Assembly (NCBI RefSeq): GCF_056712565.1
Contig: NZ_CM160072.1
Reading direction: 5' to 3' (one strand)
DNA: 64,000 nt
Below the pieces are notes generated by a model that was given only the letters and a program-made list of their open reading frames with translations, did no database searches and had not been told where the DNA came from. How positions within the stretch are numbered: position 1 is the first letter of the stretch; each line of letters starts with the position of its first letter. The position numbers and the translations under genes were made by a program. Positions 1,274-29,322 of this stretch are shown in pieces.

Positions 1274-2323
1274 ATGAAGATCAAAGCTGTTGGTGCATAT
1301 TCCGCTAAACAACCGCTTGAACCGATGGATATCACCCGGCGTGAACCGGGACCGCATGATGTCAAAATTGAAATCGCTTACTGTGGCGTCTGCCATTCCG
1401 ATATCCACCAGGTCCGTTCCGAGTGGGCGGGGACGGTTTATCCCTGCGTGCCGGGCCATGAAATTGTAGGGCGCGTGGTAGCCGTTGGTGATCAGGTAGA
1501 AAAATATGCGCCGGGCGATCTGGTTGGTGTCGGCTGCATTGTCGACAGTTGTAAACATTGCGAAGAGTGTGAAGATGGGCTGGAAAACTACTGTGATCAC
1601 ATGACCGGAACCTATAACTCGCCGACACCGGATGAACCGGGCCATACTCTGGGCGGCTACTCACAACAGATCGTCGTTCATGAGCGATATGTTCTGCGTA
1701 TTCGTCACCCGCAAGAGCAGCTGGCGGCGGTGGCTCCTTTATTGTGTGCAGGAATCACCACGTACTCGCCGCTACGCCACTGGCTGGCCGGGCCGGGTAA
1801 AAAAGTGGGCGTGGTCGGCATCGGCGGTCTGGGACATATGGGGATTAAACTGGCCCACGCGATGGGGGCGCATGTGGTGGCATTTACCACTTCTGAGTCA
1901 AAACGCGAAGCGGCAAAAGCCCTGGGGGCCGATGAAGTTGTTAACTCACGCAATGCCGATGAGATGGTGGCTCATGTGAAGAGTTTCGATTTCATTTTGA
2001 ATACAGTAGCTGCGCCACATAATCTCGACGATTTTACCACCTTGCTGAAGCGCGATGGCACCATAACGCTGGTTGGTGCGCCTGCGACACCGCATAAATC
2101 GCCGGAAGTTTTCAACCTGATCATGAAACGCCGCGCGATAGCTGGTTCTATGATTGGCGGCATTCCAGAAACTCAGGAGATGCTCGATTTTTGCGCCGAA
2201 CATGGCATCGTGGCTGATATAGAGATGATTCGGGCCGATCAAATTAATGAAGCCTATGAGCGAATGCTGCGTGGTGATGTGAAATATCGTTTTGTTATCG
2301 ATAATCGCACACTAACAGACTGA
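1274..2323 (+). CDS. yahK: NADPH-dependent aldehyde reductase, Zn-dependent alcohol dehydrogenase family
   Basis: 349-aa ORF; GHEIVGRVVAVG zinc-ADH signature, structural-zinc Cys cluster CKHCEECEDGLENYC, Rossmann GVVGIGGLGHMG; RBS aggag 8 bp upstream. Confidence 0.85.
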   Translation: MKIKAVGAYSAKQPLEPMDITRREPGPHDVKIEIAYCGVCHSDIHQVRSEWAGTVYPCVPGHEIVGRVVAVGDQVEKYAPGDLVGVGCIVDSCKHCEECEDGLENYCDHMTGTYNSPTPDEPGHTLGGYSQQIVVHERYVLRIRHPQEQLAAVAPLLCAGITTYSPLRHWLAGPGKKVGVVGIGGLGHMGIKLAHAMGAHVVAFTTSESKREAAKALGADEVVNSRNADEMVAHVKSFDFILNTVAAPHNLDDFTTLLKRDGTITLVGAPATPHKSPEVFNLIMKRRAIAGSMIGGIPETQEMLDFCAEHGIVADIEMIRADQINEAYERMLRGDVKYRFVIDNRTLTD

Positions 2324-2360
2324 AAAAATTAATAAACATCCTGTGGTTTAACATATTAAC

Positions 2361-2396
2361 TTCGCTCCACTTAACTTTTTAGTTAAGGAGAGCGAA
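2361..2396 (+). terminator. Imperfect 16-bp inverted repeat hairpin downstream of yahK (possible terminator)
   Basis: ttcgctccacttaact / tttt / agttaaggagagcgaa, 14 of 16 positions complementary; no clean U-run after stem. Confidence 0.3.
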
Positions 2397-2758
2397 ATAA
2401 TATCAAAGTAGTGGTAAACCTATAGCGTAAATTCAGATTGTTAAATTAACTCCACTACTTTACACGTTAGTTATGAGCGATTTCTGATAGTGTCTGGTTT
2501 AATCAGAGCTTTATTATCTGCGACGTTTATTTTTATTTAAGAGAGCCACCTGCAAGTTGTTATTCCACCAGAGAGTGAATCGCAAAGCAGGTCATCATTT
2601 CATCTGTATATCTGTATGCCAAATGGCATTCCCCCTCCTTTTTCGCCGATATTTTGTTGTGAACGGCGGAGTTTCGCTTAAAAAAGCACCAGTAGTGGTT
2701 TCGCAGCTATATGGTGTATAAAAAATGTTCTCATACAGATGTTTTGTGAATGTGTGGG

Positions 2759-2787
2759 TTGACATTCATATGAAAAAAATCATAATT
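2759..2787 (+). promoter_or_regulatory. Sigma70-like promoter (TTGACA, 16-bp spacer, CATAAT) facing yahM
   Basis: ttgaca at 2759-2764 and cataat at 2781-2786 in AT-rich intergenic DNA. Confidence 0.3.
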
Positions 2788-2944
2788 CCATCATGTTTGT
2801 GTGGGGTCTTTTCTGTATCTTACGCATCGCACTCAAGCCTGACAGAAAATATGCTGTAAGGCTCATATCAAAAACCGCCATTAGCTCATCAGGAAGAGCA
2901 GACGACAACCAGGATTGTTGTATGGTACGGGGTTCGAGGCCTCG

Positions 2945-3190
2945 ATGGCGGTCCAACTTTTCAAAACTCTTCTGAATCAGATCCCCTTATTTTCATCCCT
3001 GCAAAGTGGAACATTGCCATTGTTTGGCTATTCAGGACGGGTCAGAGCAATGAAAAAAGCCCACACAGGGGAGAGTGGGCTGAAATGGGAAGCTAAAGAC
3101 TCAAGTAAACTTATCGGAAATAAGGACCACGCATTACGGGGGCTATCATCGCCGATGGTCGGGATTCGGCAAATCAGGTTGATTACGTAG
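2945..3190 (+). CDS. yahM: Small hypothetical protein (81 aa)
   Basis: ATG at 2945 inside a longer TTG-initiated ORF; ends 17 bp before convergent yahN stop, matching the K-12 arrangement as I recall it. Confidence 0.35.
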   Translation: MAVQLFKTLLNQIPLFSSLQSGTLPLFGYSGRVRAMKKAHTGESGLKWEAKDSSKLIGNKDHALRGLSSPMVGIRQIRLIT

Positions 3191-3206
3191 AGAGTAAATT
3201 ATCTGC

Positions 3207-3878
3207 TCACCGCTGCGTCACCCCTTCGTAAATCAGGCGTAGCGCGAATACACCAATAATTGCACCAATAACCCGACTGGCAACGCGTTGCATACGCCCA
3301 TAAGCACGACGCACTGCGGGCAAAGAAAACGCCTGACTAAGAAAGACTCGCCAGATAATTGATGCGAGCACAATCCCCGCCCAGGCCATTAAACGTGCCC
3401 ATGTTGGTGTTTCGGCATTTAATGTTACTGAGAAAATACTGATAAAAAATAAAACGGTTTGCGGGTTAGAGAGATCGGTAATTAATCCACGGCGGAAAAA
3501 GACATACCAGGGGGCACTAATCGGTTGTTGTAGTGTGCTCATCTGCGGTGTTGACTGGCGGCGCATGCTACACCACGCAAACCATAAGAGATAAGCGCCG
3601 CCGACGATTCTGATAAGCGAAAAAATCTCCTCACACTGCGTAATTAGCGTTGCAAGACCAAACAAACCCAACCCGGAATAAAACGCATCGCCCAGCGCCA
3701 CGCCCAGTCCGGTCAGCACCCCTGCGCGTCGACCGGAAGCCAGGCTGGTTTGTACTACCACAAAGAGATTGGCTCCCGGATTAAAAAAAGTAATCACGAA
3801 CAGTCCTACGGTCAGATAAACGGCGTGCAAAGGATCCATAGTGATTTCATCCATAAATAAGTGAAGTAACTTCATCAT
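3207..3878 (-). CDS. yahN: LysE/RhtB-family amino acid exporter
   Basis: 223-aa multi-TM ORF, minus strand; size and position match yahN. Confidence 0.75.
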   Translation of the reverse strand: MMKLLHLFMDEITMDPLHAVYLTVGLFVITFFNPGANLFVVVQTSLASGRRAGVLTGLGVALGDAFYSGLGLFGLATLITQCEEIFSLIRIVGGAYLLWFAWCSMRRQSTPQMSTLQQPISAPWYVFFRRGLITDLSNPQTVLFFISIFSVTLNAETPTWARLMAWAGIVLASIIWRVFLSQAFSLPAVRRAYGRMQRVASRVIGAIIGVFALRLIYEGVTQR

Positions 3879-6163: not shown

Positions 6164-6178
6164 TGGCACACCCCTTGC
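6164..6178 (+). promoter_or_regulatory. Sigma54 (-24/-12) promoter of prpBCDE
   Basis: TGGCAC-N5-TTGC (tggcacaccccttgc), 48 bp upstream of prpB ATG; fits the sigma54 consensus and PrpR being an enhancer-binding protein. Confidence 0.7.
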
Positions 6179-6225
6179 TTTGTCTTTATCAACGCAAATA
6201 ACAAGTTGATAACAAAGGATGGGCT

Positions 6226-7116
6226 ATGTCTCTACACTCTCCAGGTAAAGCGTTTCGCGCTGCACTGTCTAAAGAAAATCCATTGCAGATTGTTGGCACC
6301 ATTAACGCCAACCATGCGCTGTTGGCGCAGCGTGCCGGATATCAGGCAATTTATCTCTCCGGCGGTGGCGTGGCGGCAGGGTCGCTGGGGCTGCCCGATC
6401 TCGGTATTTCTACTCTTGATGACGTGCTGACAGATATTCGCCGTATCACCGACGTTTGTTCGCTGCCGCTGCTGGTGGATGCGGATATCGGTTTTGGTTC
6501 TTCTGCTTTTAACGTGGCGCGCACCGTGAAATCGATGATTAAAGCCGGTGCGGCAGGATTGCATATTGAAGATCAGGTTGGTGCGAAACGCTGCGGTCAT
6601 CGCCCGAACAAAGCGATCGTCTCGAAAGAGGAGATGGTGGATCGGATCCGCGCGGCGGTGGATGCGAAAACCGATCCTGATTTTGTGATCATGGCGCGCA
6701 CCGATGCGCTGGCGGTAGAGGGGCTGGACGCCGCGATCGAGCGTGCGCAGGCCTATGTTGAAGCGGGTGCCGAGATGTTGTTCCCGGAGGCGATTACCGA
6801 ACTCGCCATGTACCGCCAGTTTGCCGATGCGGTGCAGGTGCCGATCCTCGCTAACATTACCGAATTTGGTGCCACGCCGCTGTTTACTACCGATGAATTA
6901 CGCAGTGCCCATGTTGCAATGGCGCTGTACCCGCTTTCAGCGTTCCGTGCCATGAACCGCGCCGCTGAACATGTCTACAACGTCCTGCGTCAGGAAGGCA
7001 CGCAGAAAAGCGTCATCGACACCATGCAGACCCGCAACGAGCTGTACGAAAGCATCAACTACTACCAGTACGAAGAGAAGCTCGACGACCTGTTTGCCCG
7101 TAACCAGGCGAAATAA
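6226..7116 (+). CDS. prpB: 2-methylisocitrate lyase
   Basis: 296-aa ORF, isocitrate lyase/PEP mutase family; first gene of prp operon. Confidence 0.92.
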
Positions 7117-7160
7117 AACACAACGAAAAATATCTCGACCCTACAAATGACGAGGACAAC

Positions 7161-8330
7161 ATGAGCGACACAACGATCCTGCAAAACAGTACCCATGTCA
7201 TTAAACCGAAAAAATCGGTGGCGCTTTCTGGCGTTCCGGCGGGCAATACGGCGCTCTGCACCGTGGGTAAAAGTGGCAATGACTTGCATTACCGTGGCTA
7301 CGATATTCTTGATCTGGCGGCACATTGCGAATTTGAAGAAGTGGCGCATCTGCTGATCCACGGCAAACTGCCGACCCGTGACGAACTTGCCGCCTACAAA
7401 ACGAAACTGAAAGCCCTGCGCGGTTTACCGGCTAACGTGCGTACTGTGCTGGAAGCCTTACCAGCGGCGTCGCACCCGATGGATGTTATGCGCACCGGCG
7501 TTTCCGCGCTCGGCTGCACACTGCCGGAAAAAGAGGGGCACACTGTATCTGGTGCGCGGGATATTGCCGACAAACTGCTGGCGTCACTTAGCTCGATTCT
7601 TCTCTACTGGTATCACTACAGCCATAACGGCGAACGCATCCAGCCGGAAACTGATGACGACTCTATCGGCGGTCACTTCCTGCATCTGCTGCACGGCGAA
7701 AAGCCGTCGCCAAGCTGGGAAAAGGCGATGCATATCTCGCTGGTGCTGTACGCCGAACACGAGTTTAACGCTTCCACCTTTACCAGCCGGGTGATTGCGG
7801 GCACTGGCTCTGATATGTATTCCGCGATTATTGGCGCGATTGGCGCACTGCGCGGACCGAAACACGGCGGGGCGAATGAAGTGTCGCTGGAGATCCAGCA
7901 ACGCTACGAAACGCCGGACGAAGCCGAAGCAGATATCCGCAAGCGGGTGGAAAACAAAGAAGTGGTCATTGGTTTTGGGCATCCGGTTTATACCATCGCC
8001 GACCCGCGCCACCAGGTGATCAAACGCGTGGCAAAGCAGCTCTCGCAGGAAGGCGGCTCGCTGAAGATGTACAACATCGCCGATCGCCTGGAAACAGTGA
8101 TGTGGGAGAGCAAAAAGATGTTCCCCAATCTCGACTGGTTCTCCGCTGTTTCCTACAACATGATGGGTGTTCCCACCGAGATGTTCACACCACTGTTTGT
8201 TATCGCCCGCGTCACCGGCTGGGCGGCGCACATTATCGAACAACGTCAGGACAACAAAATTATCCGTCCTTCCGCCAATTATGTTGGACCGGAAGACCGC
8301 CAGTTTGTCGCGCTGGATAAGCGCCAGTAA
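7161..8330 (+). CDS. prpC: 2-methylcitrate synthase
   Basis: 389-aa ORF, citrate synthase family (GFGHPVY motif). Confidence 0.92.
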
Positions 8331-8363
8331 ACCTCTACGAATAACAATAAGGAAACGTACCCA

Positions 8364-24292: not shown

Positions 24293-24318
24293 TTCGCACC
24301 TCATCATCTGCACGCAAT

Positions 24319-24367
24319 ATACTATAGGGGGGTATGCTATATGTCAATGCATACCCCCCTATAGTAT
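24319..24367 (-). promoter_or_regulatory. frmRAB operator: perfect 19-bp inverted repeat with G6/C6 tracts
   Basis: atactataggggggtatgc - 11 bp - gcatacccccctatagtat, 27 bp upstream of frmR start; G/C tract flanked by AT-rich inverted repeats is the RcnR/FrmR-type site architecture. Confidence 0.75.
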
Positions 24368-24480
24368 ATAACACTGGAGAATAAAATTTATCCGGTGAAT
24401 GTAGTCGGAAAACAAAGAGGAAAGGGGATAGGGGCTAATCGGCAGGGAAGGCCGCCCCGGATAGCGGGCGGCAGAAGGAA

Positions 24481-25254
24481 TCAGAATTTCCAGGTCAGAT
24501 GGGCTGCAAGTTGCAGACCGTTATAATCATCGGTTGGGGTGTCGTACCACACTTTACCTGCCGTCAACCCGAGATTAAGTTGCTCAGTCAGCGGTTGAAT
24601 ACGTTGCAAACTGATGCTCTTCATGCTGCCGTAGCGTGTTTCTGGCGTCCAGTCGTAGGTGTAAGCACCTGTTCCGCGGCTTAGCCATAGTTGCGTGTAA
24701 CCAGTGCCGCGCGGGTCATTCAGACGCACGGAAATCATATTGCTGTAACTACCACCTGCATCGCTGGAGTCATAATGGGTATAGCGATAGCTGGTGATCA
24801 CCGGGCCAGTATAGAGTGATATGCCACCTTGCCAGGCATCGACTTCGACATCATCGTAATATTTAGTGTAGCGATAACCGGTCGTGAAAAGCGTTTTTGG
24901 CAACAGGGCCAGGTTAATATCCTGACGAAAATCCTGGCGGGCAAAGACCGGCGTATTATCCGCAAAGGCAATACCCGTTCGGGTTGTCAGCCAGTTATTC
25001 CATTTGTACCAGACTGCACCCTGGCCGCGAGTGGCATTGAAATGTTCAGTTTCATAATCACGACGCCCCTGGGAAAGATTAAAAAGCAGCGTTGCGTTTT
25101 CAACTTTCGCCACCAGTTCAGCATACGCTAAATTACGGTTGCCATGATCGCCAGAATAATCGGTAAAATCGTAGCCCGCGGTAATGGAAGTTAACCCGGC
25201 ATAAACGGGTAATGCGCTAAAAATTGCCGCCGCTAATAACGTCCGTTTTATCAT
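24481..25254 (-). CDS. yaiO: Outer-membrane beta-barrel protein
   Basis: 257 aa; signal peptide MIKRTLLAAAIFSALPVYA; alternating aromatic/polar strands; C-terminal TWKF. Confidence 0.75.
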   Translation of the reverse strand: MIKRTLLAAAIFSALPVYAGLTSITAGYDFTDYSGDHGNRNLAYAELVAKVENATLLFNLSQGRRDYETEHFNATRGQGAVWYKWNNWLTTRTGIAFADNTPVFARQDFRQDINLALLPKTLFTTGYRYTKYYDDVEVDAWQGGISLYTGPVITSYRYTHYDSSDAGGSYSNMISVRLNDPRGTGYTQLWLSRGTGAYTYDWTPETRYGSMKSISLQRIQPLTEQLNLGLTAGKVWYDTPTDDYNGLQLAAHLTWKF

Positions 25255-25255
25255 T

Positions 25256-25966
25256 TTAATCTCCTGTACGGATAAGTTCTTGTCGGAGTGAATAAGTTCC
25301 GGTAGGTAAATTACGTTCTACAATCACGCGCGGGCCAAGTTGCGTGTTCGGGGAAATAATTCGCCCAGGCAAAATAATAACTTGTACGCCAAGGCGTGAA
25401 CGCTGCCCGATATAACAACCTAATTTATCGCATCCGGTAGCGATAATTCCATCTGGAGTTCGAACAGACACGGGCTGTTCATCCAGACGATGATTACTGG
25501 TTCGTACTTGTGCGCCCAAATATGCCTGGTTTGCAACTACCGAGTCGGCAATAAAGCATTGCGGACCAATCGTGGCTTCCGCTTCAATAACCGCATTTTT
25601 AATTTCGGTGGCAAAACCAATTCTTACGCCATTGCTGATTATTGTGCCAGGACGAATAAACGCATAATTACCTATTAGGCAGTTTGCGCCAATCACTACC
25701 GGACCCTGAATAACGGCACCGTGGCAAATACGGGTATTCGCGCCGATAACAACCTCACCGGCACTTTCATCAATAATCACCTGGTCTGCAATCTGAATAT
25801 TTTTCTCTTTAACATTAAGCTTCAGATAGTTTTTCAGTTCCTGTGACAGAAGGGTGGGAATAAGCGGTTGACACTTCCACCAGTGCGGAATAGCGGGTGG
25901 GTTTGTCGCGCTGAGGTTCGCGTCCAGTAAAAAAGGCAATAAGTCCATAAATAATCCAGATGGCAT
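25256..25966 (-). CDS. yaiX: Hexapeptide-repeat (left-handed beta-helix) acyl/acetyltransferase; start codon uncertain
   Basis: Repeated [LIV]-G-x-x-x-x hexapeptides (VIGANTRICHGAVIQGPVVIGANCLIGNYAFIRPGTIISNGVRIG); 5' end overlaps yaiP by up to 152 bp; stop is 1 bp from yaiO ATG. Confidence 0.6.
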   Translation of the reverse strand: MPSGLFMDLLPFLLDANLSATNPPAIPHWWKCQPLIPTLLSQELKNYLKLNVKEKNIQIADQVIIDESAGEVVIGANTRICHGAVIQGPVVIGANCLIGNYAFIRPGTIISNGVRIGFATEIKNAVIEAEATIGPQCFIADSVVANQAYLGAQVRTSNHRLDEQPVSVRTPDGIIATGCDKLGCYIGQRSRLGVQVIILPGRIISPNTQLGPRVIVERNLPTGTYSLRQELIRTGD

Positions 25967-27071
25967 AAGCTAATAATACATACACAACGGAAAGCGGTGC
26001 TAAAGGCACCAACAACCAGCAACGATGAAACCAGGCGCTAAATGCACCAATAACACAAACTACGCCGACCCAGATAAGCGGGAACATTGCCAACACCACA
26101 CCATGTGGCCCGGTGGTGATGAATTCATTAAACCAGGTAGTGAGATAAATACCAACGCCATAAAGCACAACCAACAGCATAGGAAATATACTGAAGATAC
26201 CGAAGCGGCTAAATAAAAGTCTTTTATGCAGGCGCATACAGACCGCGTAGCCCACAATCCAACGCCGCCAGCGGCGCCACTCCTCACGCGGACTGTTACA
26301 TTCCTGTGGGTATACGATGCAGCGATTCGCCTGCCGAATACGGTAGCCGTTTGCCACCAATGTCCAGGTGAGATCAAGGTCTTCGACTTTAGTACGATCC
26401 GAGAAACCGAACTTACGCAATACATCAGTACGGAACATCCCGCAGGCACCGCTGATGATAAACGGTGCGCCGCCCAGAAGCTGCTGTAGCGTGCGCTTCA
26501 TAACAATCATCGGCAACTTTACGGTCGCGCGGATGTGTAGCTGCTGTAGCGTGCGCTTCATAACAATCATCGGCAACTTTACGGTCGCGCGGATGTGTGG
26601 TAACAGACCCGCGCCTTTCAACGCAGTAGAGGGAATGCCGCCTACGGCATCAGCGCCACGCTCAATTTCCGCCAGCATATAGCCCATTCCGTCTTGATCG
26701 GGCGGAACATAGGTGTCGGCATCACTTAAAAAAACCTGATCGCAGGTGGCGTAATTGAGGCCATTCATCAGCGCACCACCTTTACCGGTATTTTTTTGCG
26801 TGACGGCAACAAAGCGGTCGCCCCATTTGCGTTTGACTTCCGCCATGACCGCTTCGGTATTGTCCATGGAGCCGTCGTTAACGCAAATTACCCGGCAAAA
26901 ATAAGGGTTACGCAGCAGATTATCCAGTGACTGCGCCAGACACGGGCCTTCGTTATAAGCAGGTATAATGGCGTCAATACAGCCTTTCTTTTGGCTGGGC
27001 TTACGCCTTAACGTACTCAGAAACCATAGCAATATTGCTACGGCCATACATATAAAGATCCAGGTTTTCAT
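25815..27071 (-). CDS. yaiP: Integral-membrane family-2 glycosyltransferase (synthase-like topology)
   Basis: 418 aa; N-terminal TM, CVNDGSMDNT and SDAD (DxD) motifs, EEWRRW (QxxRW-like), four or more C-terminal TM helices; contains a 20-aa tandem duplication. Confidence 0.75.
   Translation of the reverse strand: MKTWIFICMAVAILLWFLSTLRRKPSQKKGCIDAIIPAYNEGPCLAQSLDNLLRNPYFCRVICVNDGSMDNTEAVMAEVKRKWGDRFVAVTQKNTGKGGALMNGLNYATCDQVFLSDADTYVPPDQDGMGYMLAEIERGADAVGGIPSTALKGAGLLPHIRATVKLPMIVMKRTLQQLHIRATVKLPMIVMKRTLQQLLGGAPFIISGACGMFRTDVLRKFGFSDRTKVEDLDLTWTLVANGYRIRQANRCIVYPQECNSPREEWRRWRRWIVGYAVCMRLHKRLLFSRFGIFSIFPMLLVVLYGVGIYLTTWFNEFITTGPHGVVLAMFPLIWVGVVCVIGAFSAWFHRCWLLVPLAPLSVVYVLLAYAIWIIYGLIAFFTGREPQRDKPTRYSALVEVSTAYSHPSVTGTEKLSEA
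26479..26598. repeat. Perfect 60-bp tandem duplication (2 copies) inside yaiP
   Basis: agctgctgtagcgtgcgcttcataacaatcatcggcaactttacggtcgcgcggatgtgt at 26479-26538 repeated exactly at 26539-26598; encodes HIRATVKLPMIVMKRTLQQL twice in frame. Confidence 0.95.
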
Positions 27072-27080
27072 GCAATTTGC

Positions 27081-27767
27081 TCAAAGAATCATTTTATGAA
27101 TAACAAAACCTTCACCCAGATCGCTATTGACCTGTTGCCCGCGAAATTGAGCAACTGCACGCAGACGCTCCGGGCGCATATAATCTCGCTGGCTCTGACT
27201 TTTATGTTTTTTTAACGCAGTCAGTTTAAGAGAAAAATATTCTTCTTTCACGGATTCAAAAACCTGAGGCATAAATGAAAGCCAGGTACTTGGTGTTTCA
27301 TAGCCGAGAATTTGCGGAATAGCGCGACAGGCAACCATTGAGGCTTGATAGACTGCAAGATGATCCTGATGGCGGTCAGCATCATGCATGGTATATACAC
27401 GTATAATTTCAACATCAGAGGGAATTTGATTTTTTATGATGTTTTCCAGGGCAGAAATCATATCATTGAGCTGTAAATGAGCGCGGGTGTCAGCAAAATT
27501 AAGATGAATAGTTTGGTGGCACCCTAATATCTTTAGAGCGTTGCGTGATTCTTCGTGGCGATCGATTATTCCATCTACGCCAGAATTACCGGTAGTCATC
27601 ACTACGGTAGCAATATAAATTCCTTTTTGCGCAAGGCGAGCTAGCGATGCGCCACAGCCTAATTCTATATCGTCAGGATGCGCGCCAATGGCAAGGATAC
27701 CCTTTCTTTTATTTGCCGAAGAAAGGATCGCTGAATCTAAAACCTTATCCACTTTATGACACTCCAT
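27081..27767 (-). CDS. yaiS: PIG-L/LmbE-family de-N-acetylase
   Basis: 228 aa; LAIGAHPDDIELGCG and HQDH metal-binding motifs; stop is 9 bp from yaiP start. Confidence 0.75.
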   Translation of the reverse strand: MECHKVDKVLDSAILSSANKRKGILAIGAHPDDIELGCGASLARLAQKGIYIATVVMTTGNSGVDGIIDRHEESRNALKILGCHQTIHLNFADTRAHLQLNDMISALENIIKNQIPSDVEIIRVYTMHDADRHQDHLAVYQASMVACRAIPQILGYETPSTWLSFMPQVFESVKEEYFSLKLTALKKHKSQSQRDYMRPERLRAVAQFRGQQVNSDLGEGFVIHKMIL

Positions 27768-28359
27768 TTTATTTATTATACTACAAGCACAACGACGCCC
27801 CCAGAGACGTAACCTCTGACGCAGACAGATGCTAATTTTTAAGTGTTAAAAATAGCTGATAGCTGAAAAACAAGGGGCTGTCAGGTACGGGGGTAAGAGT
27901 GTGTAATCTTTTATGTAGTTCATATGTTAAGTGTTTGTGTGTTTGGTTTGTATGGTTATTTTATTTTATATATTGTATTTAAATGTGATTTAGTTTGTCA
28001 ATTAATTGCATATTAAAAATATGTTCTATGCACAAATATTGATTATATACATTATGTGAATACATTATGTGGTTGATTGAGAATGATACATTTATATATG
28101 CAATGTGAATATAATGGTTTCATTATATGTGTTGCTGTTAATAAAATAACAGACATTAGAACCTGCTTGTTTATGCATTAATAAAATGAAGTGCAGTAAT
28201 TTACTGAGTTATCAGAGTGGGCGTAATTGCATATTTAATCTTTCCTTTGCCGCTTTTTTGCTAAGAATAAAATCATCTGTACGATAACGACTAATTCTTT
28301 TAATGAATGTTTTTATTCCTGAATACTGCTCCCATAACAAGACGGGGGAGCAGACAATC

Positions 28360-29322
28360 ATGGTAATTTCATCGCGTAACACATTTCTTGCCGCACTGGC
28401 ATTCATCGCTTTTCAGGCGCAGGCGGTGAACGTCACCGTGGCGTATCAAACCTCCGCCGAACCGGCGAAAGTGGCTCAGGCCGACAACACCTTTGCTAAA
28501 GAAAGCGGAGCAACCGTGGACTGGCGTAAGTTTGACAGTGGAGCCAGCATCGTGCGGGCGCTGGCTTCGGGCGATGTGCAAATCGGCAACCTCGGTTCCA
28601 GCCCGTTAGCGGTTGCAACCAGCCAACAGGTGCCGATTGAAGTCTTCTTGCTGGCGTCAAAACTGGGTAACTCCGAAGCGCTGGTGGTAAAGAAAACTAT
28701 CAGTAAACCGGAAGACTTGATTGGTAAACGCATCGCCGTACCGTTTATCTCCACCACCCACTACAGCCTGCTGGCGGCGCTGAAACACTGGGGTATTAAA
28801 CCTGGGCAAGTTGAGATTGTGAACCTGCAGCCGCCCGCAATTATCGCCGCATGGCAGCGGGGAGATATTGATGGTGCTTATGTCTGGGCACCGGCGGTTA
28901 ACGCCCTGGAAAAAGATGGCAAGGTGCTGACCGATTCTGAACAGGTCGGGCAGTGGGGCGCGCCGACACTGGACGTCTGGGTCGTGCGGAAAGATTTTGC
29001 CGAGAAACATCCAGAGGTCGTGAAAGCGTTCGCTAAAAGCGCCATCGATGCTCAGCAACCGTACATTGCTAACCCAGACGCGTGGCTGAAACAGCCGGAA
29101 AACATCAGCAAACTGGCGCGGTTAAGCGGCGTGCCGGAAGGTGACGTTCCGGGGCTGGTGAAGGGAAATACCTATCTGACGCCGCAGCAACAAACGGCAG
29201 AACTGACCGGACCGGTGAACAAAGCGATCATCGACACCGCGCAGTTTTTGAAAGAGCAGGGCAAAGTCCCGGCTGTAGCGAATGATTACAGCCAGTACGT
29301 TACCTCGCGCTTCGTGCAATAA
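28360..29322 (+). CDS. tauA: Taurine ABC transporter periplasmic binding protein
   Basis: Start at MVISSRNTFLAALAFIAFQAQA (signal peptide); 320 aa; track ORF begins 19 codons upstream. Confidence 0.9.
   Translation: MVISSRNTFLAALAFIAFQAQAVNVTVAYQTSAEPAKVAQADNTFAKESGATVDWRKFDSGASIVRALASGDVQIGNLGSSPLAVATSQQVPIEVFLLASKLGNSEALVVKKTISKPEDLIGKRIAVPFISTTHYSLLAALKHWGIKPGQVEIVNLQPPAIIAAWQRGDIDGAYVWAPAVNALEKDGKVLTDSEQVGQWGAPTLDVWVVRKDFAEKHPEVVKAFAKSAIDAQQPYIANPDAWLKQPENISKLARLSGVPEGDVPGLVKGNTYLTPQQQTAELTGPVNKAIIDTAQFLKEQGKVPAVANDYSQYVTSRFVQ

Follow-up and report, generated by a model that had tools for sequence, protein, structure and literature searches.

The 64,000-nucleotide (nt) stretch of DNA considered here, which we call the window (contig NZ_CM160072.1 of assembly GCF_056712565.1), matches the chromosome of Escherichia coli SF-468, a human blood isolate, at 100% identity. 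Between frmRAB and tauABCD it carries four minus-strand open reading frames (ORFs), yaiS, yaiP, yaiX and yaiO, tightly packed in an operon-like manner, which are a co-inherited, mobile module under purifying selection. They encode a de-N-acetylase, a membrane-bound glycosyltransferase, an acyltransferase and an outer-membrane beta-barrel, and this real and cohesive unit plausibly synthesizes and exports a glycan or a glycolipid. To a more precise proposal, namely that the cassette makes and exports an adhesive surface glycan based on N-acetylhexosamine (HexNAc), derived from N-acetylglucosamine (GlcNAc), by a variant of the synthase-dependent exopolysaccharide pathway, we give an even chance of being right. 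An earlier, sequence-only reading of the window had located the four ORFs, with gaps of 9 and 1 nt and an overlapping yaiP/yaiX junction, and we find all of this at the same coordinates.

A profile of YaiP was scanned against one genome per species (100,044 species) and returned 18 orthologous loci, on which hidden Markov models of the other three proteins were run. The PIG-L, glycosyltransferase family 2 (GT2), left-handed beta-helix (LbH) and YaiO genes stand in the same order in all 18, and seven further contexts also hold them together; the sequence-only reading had staked its case on co-occurrence in other genomes, and co-occur they do. At seven loci with more distant GT2 genes, none had PIG-L, LbH or YaiO partners. 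The cassette spans Gamma- and Alphaproteobacteria (Enterobacterales, Lysobacterales, Pseudomonadales, Ignatzschineria and Sphingomonadales): the orthologous loci belong to Escherichia whittamii, Citrobacter (three, two of which lie in a single C. braakii genome), Superficieibacter, Ignatzschineria, Lysobacter, Stenotrophomonas (four), Acinetobacter, Pseudomonas viridiflava, Sphingomonas and Sphingomonadaceae, and to three proteobacterial metagenome-assembled genomes. Citrobacter braakii ATCC 51113 has two diverged copies on different contigs, with YaiP 77% and 75% identical to the query. Neighbourhoods of YaiO homologues, followed down to E ~1e-19, likewise all comprise the four genes in the same order (in C. 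braakii, in Salmonella and on two metagenomic contigs where MvaT is encoded nearby). The surroundings are unrelated from one context to the next, and often of a mobile kind (transposase, resolvase, ccdAB, integrase, papB), and the flanks of 24 cassettes yielded no conserved fifth gene, only within-genus synteny and generic ABC ATPases. Pairwise ratios of non-synonymous to synonymous substitutions (dN/dS) lie between 0.04 and 0.17 for each of the four genes, within Escherichia and against Citrobacter. It is because the order is constant at all 18 loci while the flanks differ, and because these ratios are low, that we speak of a mobile module inherited as a unit and kept by selection.

Within E. 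coli, a 4.1-kb query is covered to 80% or more in 4250 of 5426 complete genomes (78%), and the rows at 78-79% coverage are those where the cassette is matched without its flanks. Strain 1162T7 (NZ_CP051661.1 729557-738725) has it at another site, beside an IS66 remnant and ibrAB-like genes. Its yaiP, yaiX and yaiO are close to the alleles of the window (dS 0.05-0.18) and its yaiS is far more divergent (dS ~1.9, dN 0.27), so that this copy is a mosaic. Strain FDAARGOS_943 shows, after frmR, an fbpC / ABC transporter / uhpC / MASE1 kinase cluster in place of the cassette. As a separate observation, the same transporter cluster also flanks the cassette in C. braakii.

With such data at hand, the idea that the cassette is a cryptic remnant, decaying and devoid of current function in E. 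coli, has a very slight chance of being correct, and as a statement about the species it is largely refuted. It draws on K-12, where IS2 disrupts yaiX, as the sequence-only reading had stated and as we confirm, and where a nonsense mutation shortens YaiS to 185 aa, ending in ...KKHKS and deprived of its last 43 residues (locus positions 6169-6726). It also draws on C43(DE3), a derivative of E. coli B in which an IS1-associated deletion has left only yaiO, beside IS1A and tauA; on FDAARGOS_943, PNUSAE019785 and FORC_044, the lowest-ranked three among 30 rows taken at even spacing, which match only the first 85 bp of the query, and on lineages without the cassette; on a stop codon in the yaiO of one sampled strain; on the 60-bp duplication and T69M substitution of the SF-468 yaiP; and on the H-NS flags of K-12 tables. 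But the low dN/dS of all four genes, within E. coli and between genera, contradicts decay, as do the strict conservation of the unit in distant genera, its repeated acquisition at new sites and the phenotype reported when yaiX is repaired (PMC3531124, a second-hand account). Among 10 sampled natural isolates, all distinct from K-12, yaiS (223 aa), yaiP (398 aa) and yaiX are open in every one and yaiO in nine, so that nine have all frames open. K-12 is the exception in the species, and the intactness of the module in the window, which the sequence-only reading had singled out, is the ordinary state.

That reading had also supposed that the intact module had probably not been studied, which is partly wrong. 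EcoGene 3.0 relates, citing a 2011 meeting abstract, that repair of yaiX in K-12 results in vegetative clumping that depends on YaiP (PMC3531124), and a 2026 paper describes the overexpression of YaiX: the 71-aa K-12 fragment, and to a lesser extent the 236-aa form, raises tolerance to several antimicrobials and virulence in silkworms, the substrate of the protein being stated as unknown (PMC13058169).

All four domain assignments proposed from the sequence (PIG-L, GT2, hexapeptide/LbH and YaiO barrel) are upheld by Pfam and NCBIfam, and the motifs AHPDD, HQDH, DGS, DAD and WRRW are indeed present, in invariant or near-invariant alignment columns. YaiP matches Pfam Glycos_transf_2 (E 2e-25) as well as Glyco_trans_2_3. 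Its best NCBIfam family is PgaC_IcaA (TIGR03937), with 90.4 bits against at most 41 for the others; this is under the equivalog cut-off of 422.3 bits, making YaiP a homologue of PgaC, not an orthologue. As to its class, PDB and Foldseek searches were indecisive: PDB sequence searches, with the single sequence and with a profile, retrieved the generic N-terminal GT-A half only and no processive synthase, while the top Foldseek query TM-scores, obtained with a moderately confident AlphaFold2 model (pLDDT 67.7), went to Chlorella virus hyaluronan synthase (0.50-0.53). It is the direct hhalign alignment with E. coli PgaC which resolved the motifs (probability 99.4%, E 1e-21, 282 columns, 28% identity, through residue 315). 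There the VNDGSTD (DGSTD), DxD (DAD) and ED (VEDLD) motifs are paired, and QRLRW of PgaC is paired with RWRRW of YaiP. Hydrophobic segments at residues 1-23 and 284-384 correspond to a single helix at the N-terminus and three to four at the C-terminus, bearing out the topology suggested before. YaiP thus has the D, DxD, ED and RxxRW motifs and the helices of a processive GT2 synthase, processivity itself being predicted from these features.

The same searches lend something to another view of YaiP, that it loads a HexNAc residue on undecaprenyl phosphate for YaiS to deacetylate, the amino sugar then modifying an envelope molecule (lipopolysaccharide core, lipid A, enterobacterial common antigen, peptidoglycan or protein) much as ArnC/ArnD or Francisella FlmF2/NaxD do, and the altered surface charge causing clumping and drug tolerance. 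The top Foldseek E-values are those of GtrB, ArnC and DPMS, ArnC chains are among the top PDB sequence matches, a GT2 with a deacetylase at the cytoplasmic face follows the established Arn/Nax logic, and YaiX overexpression does alter antimicrobial tolerance (PMC13058169). We nevertheless consider envelope modification improbable. The ArnC and GtrB sequence matches are restricted to residues ~30-148, that is, to the generic GT-A domain, whereas the alignment with PgaC extends well beyond it. Polyprenyl-phosphate GT2s have no ED and QxxRW acceptor-sugar motifs; those of YaiP, ED and RW, are invariant across the aligned sequences, and on this feature YaiP does not fit the class. Furthermore, no GT-C transferase of the ArnT or GtrC kind and no flippase is linked to the cassette in ~24 contexts, a dedicated outer-membrane barrel would be left without a role, and drug tolerance, being strongest with a 71-aa pseudogene fragment, has little bearing on the native function.

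YaiS belongs to the PIG-L family by its profile match (Pfam PIG-L, E 3e-24), both of its motifs and its full-length fold. Its best NCBIfam match, BshB1 (79 bits), covers profile positions 4-223 of 226 and is under the cut-off of that family, and YaiS falls below the cut-offs of all characterised PIG-L equivalogs. Residues H30, P31, D32 and D33 of AHPDD and H133, Q134, D135 and H136 of HQDH are invariant. The closest solved relatives are archaeal diacetylchitobiose deacetylase, BC1534 and BshB1; each removes the acetyl group from a terminal GlcNAc glycoside, which we count in favour of a HexNAc product; characterised PIG-L enzymes all act right after a GlcNAc transferase. By hydropathy, YaiS has neither a hydrophobic segment nor a signal peptide, and is predicted to be cytoplasmic. 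The annotation of this gene is misleading: PGAP marks full-length yaiS as 'incomplete, missing C-terminus' in SF-468 (27390-27767 call) and in eight of the 10 sampled strains, flagging it as a pseudogene while annotating a ykiC-like 39-codon ORF on the opposite strand. We reject the pseudogene, for the frames are full-length and end in the conserved C-terminus; the 43 C-terminal residues that K-12 lacks are conserved throughout the homologues. The flag is apparently an artefact, which may arise from the use of the truncated K-12 protein as reference. Besides, dS at yaiS is 0.33-0.36 between SF-468 (B2-type) and other E. coli, and 0.07-0.12 at yaiP, yaiX and yaiO, which points to a yaiS allele that is old or has recombined.

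YaiX, a Pfam Hexapep/LbH protein also predicted to be cytoplasmic (no hydrophobic segment or signal peptide by hydropathy), matches the C-terminal domain of the NCBIfam Arch_glmU family with 129 bits, against 44 for LpxD, and remains under the cut-off for full-length Arch_glmU because the N-terminal domain is absent. Its closest solved relative is the acetyltransferase domain of ST0452 (128 bits, chain residues 233-398), aligned over the whole LbH domain including a long insertion loop, with the position of Asn331 conserved and an invariant His following that Asn. ST0452 N-acetylates glucosamine-1-phosphate and galactosamine-1-phosphate, the catalytic histidine being His308 in this enzyme and His363 in GlmU. 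Since YaiX is far nearer to the GlmU/ST0452 type than to LpxD, the parallel with LpxC/LpxD fatty acylation that the sequence-only reading had drawn is weak; its parallel with the Pga and Nod systems is reasonable, YaiP being a homologue of PgaC.

YaiO scores 183.5 bits with TIGR04390 (cut-off 32) and matches PF19413 (E 5e-26), its single Pfam domain. The signal peptide and aromatic end noted before are both there (the C-terminus reads ...TWKF), leaving 236 mature residues, which AlphaFold2 models confidently as a 14-strand barrel (pLDDT 89.4). CymA and OmpG, both carbohydrate channels, are among its best structural matches; the 16-strand exopolysaccharide porins rank lower (PelB 14.9, BcsC 14.0, PgaA 12.9). 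Experiments have placed the protein in the outer membrane, and yaiO serves in many diagnostic PCR papers as an E. coli-specific 'orphan' target (PMC4453288). Treating the family as an orphan is not tenable: it is small, and moves together with the cassette, YaiO being linked to the GT2 gene at all 18 loci. Homologues of yaiO at 44-81% identity occur in Citrobacter and Salmonella, and some E. coli lineages are without yaiO. This, together with the mobility of the gene, bears on the specificity and sensitivity of the PCR assay.

More distant YaiO-type loci tell a related story. One, found on two contigs with identical gene order, has a long YaiO-domain protein beside a PgaC-like GT2 (115 bits), with a weak LbH protein, WecB (the UDP-GlcNAc 2-epimerase) and three unannotated proteins; in another, the gene of a long YaiO-domain protein comes right after an Epimerase_2 gene, as it does in the first, where the epimerase gene is the one that scores as WecB. 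The long proteins, of 448 and 544 aa (locus positions 7001-8347; 1587-3221), have the barrel at their C-terminus; the N-terminal part is of unrecognised fold and gives a weak SPOR match. The locus with the PgaC-like GT2 and WecB looks like a second, uncharacterised YaiO-type system, and the company that these distant barrels keep supports, independently, a HexNAc glycan as the product.

In the scheme that we infer for the sugar, for a polymer rather than an oligomer, for the substrates of YaiS and YaiX and their order of action, and for export by YaiO, the inner-membrane YaiP would take a UDP-HexNAc donor at the cytoplasmic face and thread a growing beta-linked chain through its own helices, like PgaC. 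YaiS and YaiX would edit, in the cytoplasm, the N-acyl group of a GlcNAc unit, be it a primer, a terminal residue or the sugar donor: YaiS would remove the acetyl group and YaiX add an acyl group to the freed amine or to a hydroxyl. YaiO, a barrel of the size of OmpG or CymA devoid of tetratricopeptide repeats (TPR), would be the exit through the outer membrane, and H-NS acting on the AT-rich promoter region would keep normal expression low. The cassette brings together the same four kinds of function as the Pga/Ica systems for poly-N-acetylglucosamine (PNAG): a membrane GT2 synthase (PgaC/IcaA), a de-N-acetylase (PgaB/IcaB), an acyltransferase (IcaC) and an outer-membrane barrel (PgaA). Cell aggregation, the phenotype of PNAG, is also what the account of the repaired K-12 yaiX describes. 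With the synthase-dependent systems at large (Pga, Bcs, Pel, Alg) the cassette shares a GT2 synthase and a porin, and differs in having no TPR scaffold and no periplasmic modifier. The Nfr system may offer a further parallel. NfrB/NfrA/YbcH, with WecB, is an E. coli system for a polymer of N-acetylmannosamine, and the receptor of phage N4; it is likewise a normally silent pair of GT2 synthase and outer-membrane protein using a UDP-HexNAc, and the distant YaiO-domain loci, too, carry WecB beside a PgaC-like GT2. NfrA, however, is large and has TPR, and NfrB has a domain that binds cyclic di-GMP (c-di-GMP), neither of which is found in YaiO or YaiP.

A number of facts weigh against an exported HexNAc polymer. 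Functional evidence for the cassette is confined to the meeting abstract, known through the EcoGene citation, and our literature search found no paper identifying a product of the cassette. The clumping occurred in K-12 despite its truncated yaiS, and for this reason YaiS may be dispensable for it. YaiS and YaiX, with no signal peptide or hydrophobic segment, are cytoplasmic and cannot modify an extruded polymer as PgaB, IcaB and PelA do; no periplasmic polymer-modifying enzyme is thus found among the four. Deacetylation by one enzyme followed by acetylation by a GlmU-like partner would seem futile, unless another acyl donor or another target comes in. In the sequence alignment, the position of the catalytic His308 of ST0452 is a proline in YaiX, within an invariant GPQC motif. 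YaiP has RxxRW where QxxRW would be expected, its first residue being R, a variant seen in GT21 glycolipid synthases, and it has a weak Pfam GT21 match (E 2e-4). Its Foldseek E-values are near-equal for processive synthases and for the polyprenyl-phosphate GT2s (GtrB, ArnC, DPMS). Pfam scans of the four proteins found no PilZ, GGDEF, EAL or MshEN domain; PgaCD, for its part, binds c-di-GMP without a recognisable domain, so that the absence of one carries little weight. YaiO, finally, is about as similar to FadL and TodX as to OmpG, and with 14 strands and no TPR domain it is unlike PgaA, BcsC, PelB and AlgE. Known porins of synthase systems have 16-18 strands, and no periplasmic TPR scaffold was found either in YaiO, which is a barrel only, or as a protein conserved in the flanks of the cassette.

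Because cytoplasmic enzymes cannot edit an extruded chain, and because the deacetylase/acetyltransferase pair appears futile, the chief rival is a glycolipid or lipo-oligosaccharide, a possibility we hold to be real if clearly a minor one: YaiP would place one or a few GlcNAc residues on a lipid or small acceptor, YaiS would deacetylate and YaiX N-acylate the product, and a FadL-like YaiO would deliver it, an amphiphilic molecule, to the cell surface or the medium. Pathways that combine a glycosyltransferase, a PIG-L-type step and N-acylation are well known, in glycosylphosphatidylinositol (GPI; PIG-A, then PIG-L), mycothiol, bacillithiol, teicoplanin and Nod factors (NodC, NodB, NodA). It is established that a trio of glycosyltransferase, PIG-L enzyme and acyltransferase is the universal context of PIG-L enzymes, and the relatives of YaiS do act on small GlcNAc glycosides; cytoplasmic YaiS and YaiX suit a product kept at the inner face until complete. 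The RxxRW motif and GT21 match of YaiP, its four to five transmembrane helices, like those of NodC, and the FadL-like structural matches of YaiO fit as well. On the other side of the balance, YaiP, with 90 bits for PgaC/IcaA and 28 for NodC, is much nearer to the former than to NodC or the lipid-phosphate GT2s, and YaiX resembles acetyl-CoA-dependent GlmU/ST0452 (129 bits), not the fatty-acyl-carrier-protein-dependent LpxA and LpxD (28-44 bits). Neither a flippase nor an ABC exporter nor a GT-C transferase is conserved in the flanks (~24 contexts); YaiO, with its 236 mature residues, lacks the N-terminal hatch of FadL; and the distant YaiO barrels adjoin PgaC-like synthases and WecB, typical of polymer systems. 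The narrower version, in which a discrete N-acylated glucosamine glycolipid or lipo-(chito)oligosaccharide of the Nod-factor or GPI kind, and not bulk polysaccharide, leaves through a dedicated FadL/CymA-like 14-strand channel, we regard as unlikely.

Other likenesses can be sorted in the same way. The Nod factor pathway likewise joins a small GT2 (one N-terminal and about three C-terminal helices) to cytoplasmic deacetylate-then-N-acylate chemistry on GlcNAc; this is analogy only, for YaiP has a NodC equivalog score of 28 against a cut-off of 550, the PIG-L and LbH folds are unrelated to NodB (CE4) and NodA, and the cassette has an outer-membrane barrel instead of the NodIJ exporter. With the PIG-L/LmbE pathways (GPI, mycothiol, bacillithiol, aminoglycosides, teicoplanin) YaiS shares the fold family, with AHPDD and HxDH intact, and is likewise encoded with a GlcNAc-type glycosyltransferase and a possible amine-derivatising enzyme; its partner, however, is a membrane GT2 of the processive type, not a GT4. 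YaiX shares with ST0452 and archaeal GlmU the full-length LbH domain and Asn331, without their nucleotidyltransferase domain and with the invariant proline at the place of His308. As for CymA, OmpG, Omp33 and FadL, all 14-strand monomeric channels, YaiO is 8-9% identical to them, a likeness at the level of the fold only. It lacks the N-terminal plug of CymA and FadL, and, unlike YaiO, these uptake channels are not encoded with a synthase.

The yaiP of SF-468 is an atypical allele. A 60-bp stretch is duplicated in it, perfectly and in tandem (Tandem Repeats Finder, TRF: 2.0 copies, 100% match), so that the 20 aa HIRATVKLPMIVMKRTLQQL are repeated in frame in a segment near-invariant across 28 sequences; the duplication is absent from the 27 other YaiP sequences. 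Of 5426 complete E. coli genomes, only 10 have its junction, among them avian pathogenic E. coli (APEC) O2:K1:H7 and isolates from humans; 209 contigs encode the exact 418-aa protein. AlphaFold2 models residues 146-183 at pLDDT <50. Compared with STIN_95, 99.7% identical, SF-468 YaiP further differs by T69M, in the DGSTD motif, and A380V, T69 being retained in all 14 other Escherichia alleles examined.

Coordinates of all features are collected in Table 1.

Table 1. Coordinates, in the window, of the four genes of the cassette and of associated features
Feature	Position	Strand	Description
yaiO	24481-25254	-	outer-membrane 14-stranded beta-barrel, Sec signal peptide, C-terminal aromatic residue; putative exit channel
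yaiX	25256-25966 (longest ATG ORF, 236 aa)	-	cytoplasmic left-handed beta-helix acyltransferase
yaiP	25815-27071	-	inner-membrane GT2 glycosyltransferase, PgaC homologue; 418 aa here, 398 aa in other strains
yaiS	27081-27767	-	cytoplasmic PIG-L/LmbE-family zinc de-N-acetylase; 228 aa from ATG 27767
tandem duplication	26479-26598		perfect 60-bp repeat within yaiP (TRF)
sigma-70 promoter-like site	27972-28001	-	TTGACA-18-TACAAT; faces yaiS, ~205 nt 5' of the ORF
AT-rich yaiS-tauA intergenic region	27768-28302		29.9% GC; probably H-NS bound
ykiC-like 39-codon ORF	27096-27215	+	antisense to the 3' end of yaiS; PGAP hypothetical protein

The gap between the stop codon of yaiS and the ATG of yaiP reads GCAAATTGC (9 nt), and a single nucleotide separates the TAA of yaiX from the ATG of yaiO, whose AGGAG Shine-Dalgarno sequence lies inside the end of yaiX. 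How far yaiX overlaps yaiP depends on its start: by 152 nt if this is ATG 25966, while the start chosen by PGAP in SF-468, GTG 25780 (174 aa), leaves a gap of 34 nt; the PGAP start in most other strains gives 193 aa, and ATG 25948 (230 aa) is a further candidate. We favour a start upstream, overlapping yaiP, the exact codon being putative, because none of the 14 Escherichia loci examined interrupts the 236-codon frame, gene calls in other genera have the yaiX orthologue and the GT2 gene overlap by 14-83 nt, and the 236-aa protein is the form used in the 2026 paper (PMC13058169). In stop-to-stop frames, the longest LbH-matching open frame overlaps the GT2 frame at 17 of the 18 orthologous loci. 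A conserved 'WW' near the N-terminus of YaiX was set aside as proof of the upstream start, since the conserved 3' end of yaiP, overlapping in another frame, constrains the same stretch. Clusters of E. coli proteins include an apparent YaiP-YaiX fusion of 481 aa (15 member sequences), in which the C-terminal region of the GT2 is joined to hexapeptide domains; it aligns with 71% of the YaiP query at 99% identity, and possibly stems from a frameshift in the overlap region. As for yaiS, GGAG lies 8 nt 5' of GTG 27752, a start there would give 223 aa, and in non-B2 strains a stop codon comes directly ahead of the equivalent of this GTG, which is probably the true start. The ykiC-like ORF probably lies outside the four-gene module; YkiC is a small protein detected in K-12 (PMC6001520).

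With reference to regulation, the sequence-only reading had placed the genes behind a probably silenced, AT-rich promoter region of about 590 bp. The region is there: 592 bp separate yaiS from the annotated start of tauA, and the 535 bp upstream of yaiS have 29.9% GC against 51% for the window. A consensus scan gives the promoter-like site 11 of 12 matches, and a genomic SELEX table for K-12 assigns identical hexamers to yaiS and flags the spacer HNS (PMC3946193). The upstream region of yaiS is also listed as a 'promoter island' of K-12, in a table belonging to a section on H-NS complex formation (PMC3661553). H-NS probably binds this region, and it may well silence the cassette. An Rfam scan of 24300-28400 yielded sub-threshold chance matches only and no element, such as a riboswitch for c-di-GMP, in the leader of ~200 nt, and a terminator scan found no convincing intrinsic terminator between yaiO and the frmR promoter. 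In that interval a palindromic stretch (24301-24384), with sub-threshold miRNA-type Rfam matches only, overlaps a promoter-like TTGACA-17-TAGTAT of frmR (24347-24319), and may relate to the regulation of frmR.

What would the cassette mean for the biology of the cell? If it makes a HexNAc-based surface glycan, E. coli would have a further exopolysaccharide or adhesin system beside cellulose, PNAG, colanic acid and the Nfr polymer, with an unusual architecture in which cytoplasmic N-acyl editing is combined with a minimal 14-strand porin without TPR scaffold. It would also be a compact and portable four-gene model for the passage of a glycan across two membranes, by means of a small synthase and a small barrel. 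If, instead, the product is a discrete glycolipid, a new and mobile class of surface or signalling glycoconjugate would be common to Enterobacteria, Stenotrophomonas, Acinetobacter and Sphingomonas. That it was overlooked would be explained by the two lesions of K-12, the deletion in B strains and a promoter region flagged as H-NS-associated in K-12. In the best-studied of bacteria the cassette is carried, at 80% coverage or more, by about 78% of complete genomes and is kept under purifying selection; should it make the proposed glycan, it would bear on aggregation and biofilm behaviour in pathogenic E. coli, Salmonella, Citrobacter, Stenotrophomonas and Acinetobacter.

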